A stretch of DNA of 64,000 bases from Callorhinchus milii (taxonomy: Eukaryota), in NCBI RefSeq assembly GCF_018977255.1, contig NW_024704743.1, positions 8,372,001 through 8,436,000 of the forward strand, in the 5' to 3' direction. The notes below the pieces were generated by a model, which searched no databases, had not been told where the DNA came from, and saw only the letters and a program-made list of their open reading frames with translations. Positions within the stretch are counted from its first letter, which is position 1; the number at the start of each line of letters is the position of its first letter. Below are positions 372 to 40,920 of the stretch, one piece after another. A program made the translations under genes and the position numbers.

Positions 372-39689
<39,318 letters not shown>

Positions 39690-39717
39690 TGTCCCTTTTT
39701 TTAAAAAAAAACTGTCG

Positions 39718-39738
39718 TTATTTCCTTTTCACCCGCAT
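39718..39738 (-). other. Second short uORF MRVKRK*
   Basis: ATG CGG GTG AAA AGG AAA TAA, weak Kozak (ctgATGc), stops 28 nt before the KIF5B ATG. Confidence 0.45.
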
Positions 39739-39945
39739 CAGCAGCAAAACAATAAATAAGATATCTGAGACGGTTCCACGTTAGTGTTTGTCTTGTCTCG
39801 CGCTTCCCCCGCCCCCTCCGGCGTTTCGATAAAAAGCTTCCTCCGCCGGCTGCAGAGGGAATTGAAGGGGTGAAGGAAGGTGGTGGAGGAGGTGGTCCTG
39901 CTCCTGACGGCCACTTTTTTTTCCCCCCCTCTGTCCTCTTCGCCT

Positions 39946-39972
39946 TCACTTCCGATCCAACATGGCCACCAT
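39946..39972 (-). other. Upstream ORF MVAMLDRK* in the probable KIF5B 5' leader
   Basis: ATG GTG GCC ATG TTG GAT CGG AAG TGA read on the minus strand; TSS not determined. Confidence 0.6.
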
Positions 39973-40825
39973 TAAAGACCGGCGAGCGCCCGGGCCACGG
40001 CCTCGCTCTGGCTCCGCGGGAGGAGGGGAATGGGCACCAGCGCGCAGGCGCGACCCCCTCGTGACGTCACCACTGCGGAGGACGTGCGCGCGCCGCTGCC
40101 CCGGTAACCGCAAGTCAAACGTCTCTTTCCAATATCTCGCGTGTAAGAGTCACACCCGGAAGCCACGTGAACAAAATCACTTCTTGTTGTGGTGTGTGTG
40201 TGAGAGAGAAAGAGAGAGAACGAGCGCGGGAGGAGGAATGGAAGGGACTTGGTGCTTGCATTCGCCAGGAGGGGAGAGAATAAAGTAATAAAGGAGGCGG
40301 CGTGAAACCACGACACAGGAGGAGGAGGAGCCGCCGCGACCTCGCTCCTCGAGTGAGACGCTGCCCGGAAGGATTGTGGGTGATATGGCAATCACGTGGC
40401 GCTCACTGGCAGCGGATGCGCTGAACGGATGACATCATCATGCGCGGCGGCTCAAACGTCGCGAGATTTCGGCCTCGCCGGCGGGGCTGGCGCGGCGTTC
40501 GGTCCGATGGAGGAGGGGACCGCCCCCCCACCGCCGCCTTGTCACGTGACCCAAAGCAGGCACGTGCCTGGCTTGGCTGCTGAGCTCACTGTGGGGGGAG
40601 GAGGGGATTCCTTTGGCTGAGATGAGTTGCATTGGCCCAACGGGAGACGTCGAGGCAGTTCCGTTGCGACTCTGCCGTCGCTTTGCCGGCGCAGCCTCAG
40701 CAATGCCGTTGGGTCGGGCGCGATACTCGACTGCGAATCGACGGCCTCAAAGGCCCGGACGTTTGCCCACGTTCACGTTCCTGGAAATGATCCCTGCCTT
40801 GTGGGAGAATAATAATAATAATACT

Positions 40826-40920
40826 GGAGTCCTGTAGCTCAGTGGTTAGAGCACTCGCTTTGCAAGTGAGAGACCTGAGTTCAATTCCCGGCAGAGGGCG
40901 AAACCTCGGGCAAGTTTCCT
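40826..40920 (+). mobile_element. SINE tRNA-like head only, at the CpG-island edge
   Basis: ggagtcctgtagctcagtggttagagcactcgctttgcaagtgagagacctgagttcaattcccggcagagggcgaaacctcgggcaagtttcct. Confidence 0.85.

Follow-up and report, generated by a model that had tools for sequence, protein, structure and literature searches.

A short upstream open reading frame in the elephant shark KIF5B leader and its translated human counterpart

Gene content and leader of the KIF5B locus

The window, which is the whole stretch of 64,000 nucleotides that was analysed, carries the KIF5B gene of Callorhinchus milii (elephant shark). One internal exon was 100% identical to the kinesin-1 heavy chain of Callorhinchus milii; against sharks and rays its identity was 79-84%, and against bony fish it did not exceed 63%. 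The neck exon scored 82 bits against a 963-aa kinesin-1 heavy chain and 73 bits against KIF5C. The main ATG of KIF5B is at position 39689 on the minus strand. None of the 100 proteins containing exon 1, among 120 homologous proteins, had an N-terminal extension through the leader, and BLAST revealed no second copy of a 111-nt region. No divergent gene was found in the window, where 2 of 74 frames had Pfam matches, both to reverse transcriptase (PF00078; 55225-55791 and 61872-62180, minus strand; 50.7 and 21.5 bits). These fragments are probably LINE remnants. At about 40830-40900 (minus strand), on the border of the CpG island, a stretch resembling the end of a tRNA-derived SINE was seen by eye.

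The sequence-only reading of this DNA had claimed a short minus-strand upstream open reading frame (uORF1) with a second in-frame start codon in the context gccATG. Both were confirmed (Table 1). From 39972 to 39946 the codons read ATG, GTG, GCC, ATG, TTG, GAT, CGG, AAG and TGA, and the second ATG starts at 39963. Four of the first five codons are start-capable (ATG, GTG, ATG and TTG) and share one stop. The first ATG (39972) has a T at -3 and a G at +4. The spacer between the uORF1 stop and the KIF5B start codon is 256 nt.

Two further frames begin downstream of the uORF1 start codons. The stop of the GTG-started frame (39703-39701) differed from the assembly in all three RNA contigs that cover it; the mismatch at base 39703, which abolishes this stop, sits at a T/A homopolymer boundary, and either an error of the assembly or a common allele could account for it. 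The downstream AUG uORF MRVKRK shares the frame of uORF1 and likewise ends with Arg-Lys-stop; it had no counterpart among the three human KIF5B uORF rows of Ji 2015 (PMC4739776). Upstream ATGs were present within 700 nt in all five kinesin-1 leaders examined (3-10 per leader). The bare presence of a short uORF is therefore unremarkable, and it is the match to human that exceeds chance.

Table 1. Positions of the features described in the text
Feature	Position	Strand	Basis or remark
uORF1, MVAMLDRK-stop, 8 codons plus TGA, out of frame with KIF5B	39946..39972	-	sequence
Second in-frame ATG, gccATGt, purine (G) at -3	39961..39963	-	sequence
YY1-like GCCATGTT, which doubles as Kozak context for the second ATG	39959..39966	-	match to YY1 consensus
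ETS-like core CGGAAGTG across last codons and stop	39947..39954	-	match to ETS consensus
GTG-started frame, 82 codons, 4-nt overlap with uORF1 stop	39701..39949	-	
Downstream AUG uORF, MRVKRK-stop, stop 28 nt before main ATG	39718..39738	-	
KIF5B coding exon 1, 42 codons, followed by GT donor	39564..39689	-	sequence, RNA contigs
Transcribed leader	39690..40379	-	contigs X4 to 39956, X6 to 39972, X1 to 40379
CpG island/promoter	39101..40900	.	CpG o/e 0.6-1.28
NRF1-like match	40042-40051		pattern match only
CRE match	40062-40069		pattern match only
ETS match upstream	40157-40162		pattern match only
E-box matches	40164-40169, 40393-40398, 40561-40566		pattern matches only
BANP-like match	40459-40466		pattern match only
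USF match	40541-40550		pattern match only
KIF5C look-alike	G000:C6:4328035-4328071 (L005:336-372)	-	alignment

Transcripts and promoter

RNA coverage was taken, in the form of contigs, from 4 of 14 listed sequencing runs, and none of the listed runs is recorded as RNA; the RNA status of the contigs is a guess, for which the splice junction seen in X1 and X6 speaks. At the donor of exon 1 these two contigs part from the genome and run on into the next motor-domain exon (read by eye), and are therefore spliced. Contig X6 (3,171 nt) spans 39563-39972, its end falling on the A of the first uORF1 ATG, so that all 27 nt of uORF1, including start and stop, are inside a spliced contig and belong to the mature leader. 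Contig X4 ends within uORF1, X1 is contiguous up to the upstream end of the leader given in Table 1, and a piece of X9 lies at 40134-40308. A start site downstream of the element was rejected, as X6 covers the whole of uORF1 and X1 extends further upstream, and the uORF is inside the mRNA in both shark and human. The ends of X4 and X6, two contigs from a single study, could reflect a start a little upstream, or else the loss of the stretch with 73% GC found there.

No variants were listed inside the 27 nt of uORF1, and the 256-nt spacer had four substitutions and one indel site. Within the leader, a trinucleotide repeat at 39878-39884 was polymorphic, with 3- or 6-nt insertions in three runs. 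The promoter motif matches fall into two separate clusters, at 40040-40170 and 40360-40640, an arrangement that suggests proximal and distal start sites. Contigs of low depth at 40134-40308 and 40418-40617 may represent distal or divergent transcription.

The human counterpart

The uORF of human KIF5B is already catalogued (PMC4739776, PMC10908861). The rows of Ji 2015 (PMC4739776) give three translated human KIF5B uORFs, at 102:197, 243:269 (NM_004521) and 266:424, and the row of Yang 2024 (PMC10908861) gives a uORF of 27 nt with an ATG start at 226:253 of ENST00000302418.5, for which two of the four comparison tools in that table score 0. According to these rows, which contain no sequence, the ribosome-profiled human uORF is exactly 27 nt long and lies about 225-242 nt inside the mRNA; its genomic position is hg19 chr10:32345101-32345128. 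In-frame ribosome occupancy comes from the same Ribo-seq catalogue rows and refers to human only. The human translated uORF at 266:424 begins at the position equivalent to the GTG-started frame of the shark.

Human bases were obtained by searching literature text with a 13-base piece of the shark element, whose matches included PMC2647799 and PMC3613343, both on KIF5B. A human KIF5B RT-PCR primer printed in PMC2647799 matched shark positions 39961-39946 at 15 of 16 bases by eye, the sole mismatch being ATG in human and TTG in the shark at codon 5. The comparison covers the last 16 nt of uORF1, i.e., five codons including the stop. Past the stop, only one of seven bases was identical between the shark and a human shRNA sequence (PMC3613343; by eye). 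This shRNA, directed against the 5'UTR over the last uORF codons and the stop, was reported to lower KIF5B protein by 81% in HeLa cells (PMC3613343), so the uORF is part of the bulk human transcript. The chance of a 15/16 match anywhere between two leaders is about 0.01, before the shared length, frame, start and stop are considered. Length (27 nt), start (ATG) and stop (TGA) are common to the two species.

Thus the element occurs in a mammalian KIF5B leader. Of the human sequence that the sequence-only reading had given, the 27-nt length, the ATG start and the part covered by the primer were borne out. Its claim of a uORF conserved across jawed vertebrates held as far as the translated human uORF of the same length, shark and human alone being compared. 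The two lineages diverged more than 400 million years ago, and because the genes are KIF5B orthologues the comparison spans jawed vertebrates. On this two-species comparison uORF1 is real and deeply conserved, and it is translated in human. The view that it is not a real feature was rejected, with its sequence confirmed and a human counterpart found.

A scan of metagenomes for a third orthologue gave one locus (L008) from 251 candidates, which we read as a KIF5A-like exon 1 and which had no element in the 898 nt upstream; in viral contigs and prokaryote genomes the yield was 0 of 66 and 0 of 30. An exact match to a 21-base pattern (L009:1001-1021) was seen in a GC-rich viral contig without kinesin context; it was attributed to chance, the DNA being non-kinesin and GC-rich. 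KIF5B is missing from a list of hyperconserved 5'UTR elements in 44 vertebrates (PMC7484617). Neither a paper on the conservation or function of the KIF5B uORF nor reporter data on mutants of its start or stop were found in the literature covered, which included few subscription papers; a conservation call may sit in the supplements of Takahashi 2020, Mackowiak 2015, Yang 2024 or NaP-TRAP, outside that literature.

Other kinesin-1 genes of the elephant shark

Mammals are known to have three kinesin-1 heavy-chain genes; the elephant shark genome contains four (C2, where the window lies, C6, C27 and C554). The C27 gene lies at about 2487176-2503713 and the C554 copy, which has a divergent exon 1 (46% identity), at about 12667-35407. 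At both C2 and C6 an Enhancer-of-polycomb gene is located upstream in the same orientation, and the C6 gene has a KIF5C-type neck sequence. C2 and C6 are therefore the KIF5B/KIF5C ohnologue pair.

The best ungapped match to the element in 2,816 nt (19/30) was found in the KIF5C leader, 180 nt before the ATG. The 18/30 match of C27 falls within a simple repeat 1,288 nt upstream, and C554 gave 16/30. Dinucleotide shuffles over 400 and 700 nt gave C6 a P of 0.004 and 0.017, respectively, while six tests on the other three loci gave 0.25-1.0; the best value becomes about 0.03 after eight tests, and the shuffles ignore the YY1/Kozak enrichment of leaders. When extended, the KIF5C match comprises 23 of 37 bases, and its reading is IAAMFR-stop-R-stop. 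GCCATG, i.e., the second ATG, and an in-frame TGA are present at the same spacing, but ATT stands in place of the first ATG, a TAG comes earlier in the frame and there is no ETS core. The ATG of the look-alike closes a 27-codon uORF (MDLCC...AAMFR-stop) that starts 243 nt before the main ATG. This likeness suggests that the element may predate the KIF5B/KIF5C duplication. No published mention of the KIF5C motif was found in the literature covered.

Nature of the constraint

At the synonymous sites visible in both species (D, R, K and stop) shark and human were identical in four of four cases by eye, versus three of ten third bases at shared residues of coding exon 1 (siRNA and reverse primer, PMC2647799; by eye). 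The difference gave a Fisher P of 0.035, or 0.07 without the stop. Among the visible codons one non-synonymous and no synonymous change was seen, five codons being too few for Ka/Ks. Judged from these bases, the constraint on uORF1 looks nucleotide-level and not peptide-level. That the bases themselves are held fits neither a free-peptide model nor a uORF in which only start and stop matter.

It is highly improbable that the conserved feature is a functional peptide of 8 residues (or its 5-residue form), acting as a stalling nascent chain in cis or as a micropeptide in trans. Translation in human, the identical C-terminal D-R-K-stop and the conservative nature of the L/M change would agree with it. 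Against it, a chain of 8 residues stays entirely inside the exit tunnel, peptides of this kind are usually unstable, and the KIF5C look-alike has a different reading with two stops. The conserved micropeptide of the earlier claim is disfavoured because the only visible substitution is non-synonymous while all four synonymous sites are unchanged. The rows listed from Sandmann 2023 (PMC10032668) contained no match by gene name (except as an interactor), transcript id or peptide ending.

Constraint on nucleotides would also be expected of a DNA element, which the sequence-only reading had named as its alternative. In that case the conserved feature would be an ETS site of GABPA/ELK type, with YY1-like sites next to it, in a CpG-island promoter, and the uORF would be a tolerated side effect, because YY1 sites contain a Kozak-like ATG and the ETS core ends in TG. 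The YY1 and ETS patterns applied here are taken to be the consensus. The invariant stretch of uORF1 coincides with the ETS core CGGAAGTG, which is the same in shark and human, and the similarity to the human sequence ends 1 nt past it; the invariant synonymous sites are accommodated too. Contigs X4 and X6 end at the element, as expected for a start site there. In the genome 38 YY1+ETS pairs were counted, versus 25 for the reversed control, and a dual role of AUG-containing YY1-type elements near start sites is described in Elfakess and Dikstein 2008 (PMC2518114).

Other observations fit a DNA element poorly. Both the shark and the KIF5C ohnologue carry the YY1 consensus GCCATNTT, but in human an A stands at the first T of TT: the codon 5 swap replaces one start-capable codon by another and breaks CCATNTT, which needs TTG. 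The site GCCATGTT is accordingly found in KIF5C and disrupted in human. The base before CGGAAG is T, which would be the one least favoured by GABPA. The spacing between YY1 and ETS sites had no preferred value in this genome (a 4-nt spacer in 5 of the 38 pairs), KIF5C retains frame and stop spacing although the ETS core is missing there, the human copy at +226 to +243 is outside the core promoter, and the shark run X1 continues beyond the element. The YY1 part of this alternative is thus weakened, but through its ETS part the DNA element stays a serious rival, which as the sole explanation we regard as rather unlikely.

A translation-independent RNA element, such as a protein-binding site, a localisation signal or a hairpin, would equally account for constraint at the nucleotide level. 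A hairpin at 39985-39946 had z = -2.43, with 2 of 200 shuffles as good. Only one of three folds stood out, however, as a 51-nt version gave z = -1.01 and the KIF5C look-alike z = +0.64, and the hairpin relies on the 5' flank, for which there is shark sequence only. Such an element also leaves the preserved length, start and stop unexplained, and we consider it very unlikely. An inverted ATGG..CCAT pattern was uninformative, occurring about 7,600 times in the genome.

Proposed function

We lean, with moderate confidence, towards a short, conserved uORF by which scanning ribosomes are captured, so that KIF5B relies on reinitiation. Translated and retained in the KIF5B leader since the shark-human split, uORF1 would set the output of the kinesin-1 heavy chain at initiation. 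Scanning 43S complexes would reach the stacked in-frame start codons, and most would initiate there, translate 5-8 codons and terminate at the single TGA. As the uORF is short and the spacer long (256 nt in the shark), the 40S subunit could resume scanning and would reinitiate at KIF5B with the help of DAP5/eIF4G2. The peptide would probably be a by-product, and the fixed 3' bases probably serve the context of termination or reinitiation, an overlapping DNA site, or both. A dual role as uORF and DNA element is compatible with all data.

Dependence on DAP5 would agree with the KIF5B entry in Weber 2022 (PMC9726905), which is classified as "down" in DAP5-null cells (log2FC TE -0.61, padj 3.3e-4); KIF5C had a log2FC TE of -0.63, which was not significant. 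According to the same source, 9-codon uORFs prime the main ORF to be translated in a DAP5-dependent way, while those of 19 codons and longer do not, and with 8 codons and its 256-nt spacer uORF1 fits the short-length rule (about 9 codons or fewer). In cancer cells KIF5B protein was reported to be lost on eIF4G2 knock-down (PMC10997518), a loss that uORF1 could explain. The change in translation efficiency in PMC9726905 arises, however, from a rise in RNA (+0.61) with unchanged footprints (+0.01), human KIF5B has two further translated uORFs, and the effect is not assigned to the 27-nt one. KIF5B had no match in the other two supplementary files of Ji 2015 (PMC4739776), among them a list of genes whose uORF translation exceeds that of the main ORF more than 3-fold; strong repression is therefore not indicated.

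Further points stand against capture and reinitiation as proposed. A plain reinitiation uORF should allow synonymous drift, yet the four visible sites are identical, which calls for a further constraint. Contigs X4 and X6 terminate at and inside the element, as a start site there would predict. The zero scores of two of the Yang 2024 tools (PMC10908861), the absence of KIF5B from the hyperconserved list (PMC7484617) and the restriction of the comparison to two species likewise weigh against it. We nevertheless think that uORF1 probably helps to set the amount of motor made. On this reading uORF1 would also be translated in the shark, would act through reinitiation and not leaky scanning, would be the cause of the DAP5 effect, and could be regulated by stress or cell state.

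Doubtful, though worth stating, is the stronger proposal of a sequence-specific translational switch in these 27 nt that would predate the KIF5B/KIF5C duplication. The last codons with the stop context, or the peptide, would tune termination and reinitiation to a cellular signal, providing feedback or dosage control of the heavy chain, e.g., by matching it to light chains, and the KIF5C copy would be its neuronal version, decayed or retuned.

As a class, such elements are ordinary. The main motor of outward transport is the kinesin-1 heavy chain, and there are few descriptions of how cells set its level. An element of 27 nt, fixed in the leader across jawed vertebrates and located on an mRNA scored as DAP5-dependent, would offer a precise, editable target with which to ask whether KIF5B dosage is controlled at initiation. 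It is also a compact test case for the question whether extreme 5'UTR conservation stems from uORFs or from promoter motifs.

Comparison with known systems

The uORF1 elements of ATF4 and GCN4 are short reinitiation-permissive uORFs that are similar in layout. Unlike ATF4, the shark KIF5B leader has no long inhibitory overlapping AUG uORF. With TISU (Elfakess and Dikstein 2008, PMC2518114) it shares a YY1-like motif with an AUG in the 5' leader. Membership in TISU was rejected, since the motif as described there lies within about +30 of the start site with AAG/AAS before the AUG, while the flanks here are TTTA and GCC and the human copy is at +226 or further.

CPuORFs of the ESUCA set (Takahashi 2020, PMC7530721) resemble uORF1 in being conserved across orders and in having a conserved C-terminal end. 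They are defined by Ka/Ks <0.5, whereas uORF1 has one non-synonymous and no synonymous change in five codons, which leans against membership; the main text of that paper does not name KIF5. The uORFs of WNK1, a DAP5/eIF4G2 target (Weber 2022, PMC9726905), are likewise short, AUG-started, out of frame and followed by a long spacer, in an mRNA scored as DAP5-dependent. The sequence of the WNK1 uORFs was reported there not to matter, in contrast to KIF5B, whose bases appear fixed. A further close system is the human KIF5B uORF itself (Ji 2015, PMC4739776; Yang 2024, PMC10908861), which, as far as the catalogue rows and the printed primer go, has the gene, the length, the ATG start and the position of the downstream overlapping frame in common with uORF1, and from which the shark differs by TTG at codon 5 and by the extra AUG uORF near the main start codon.
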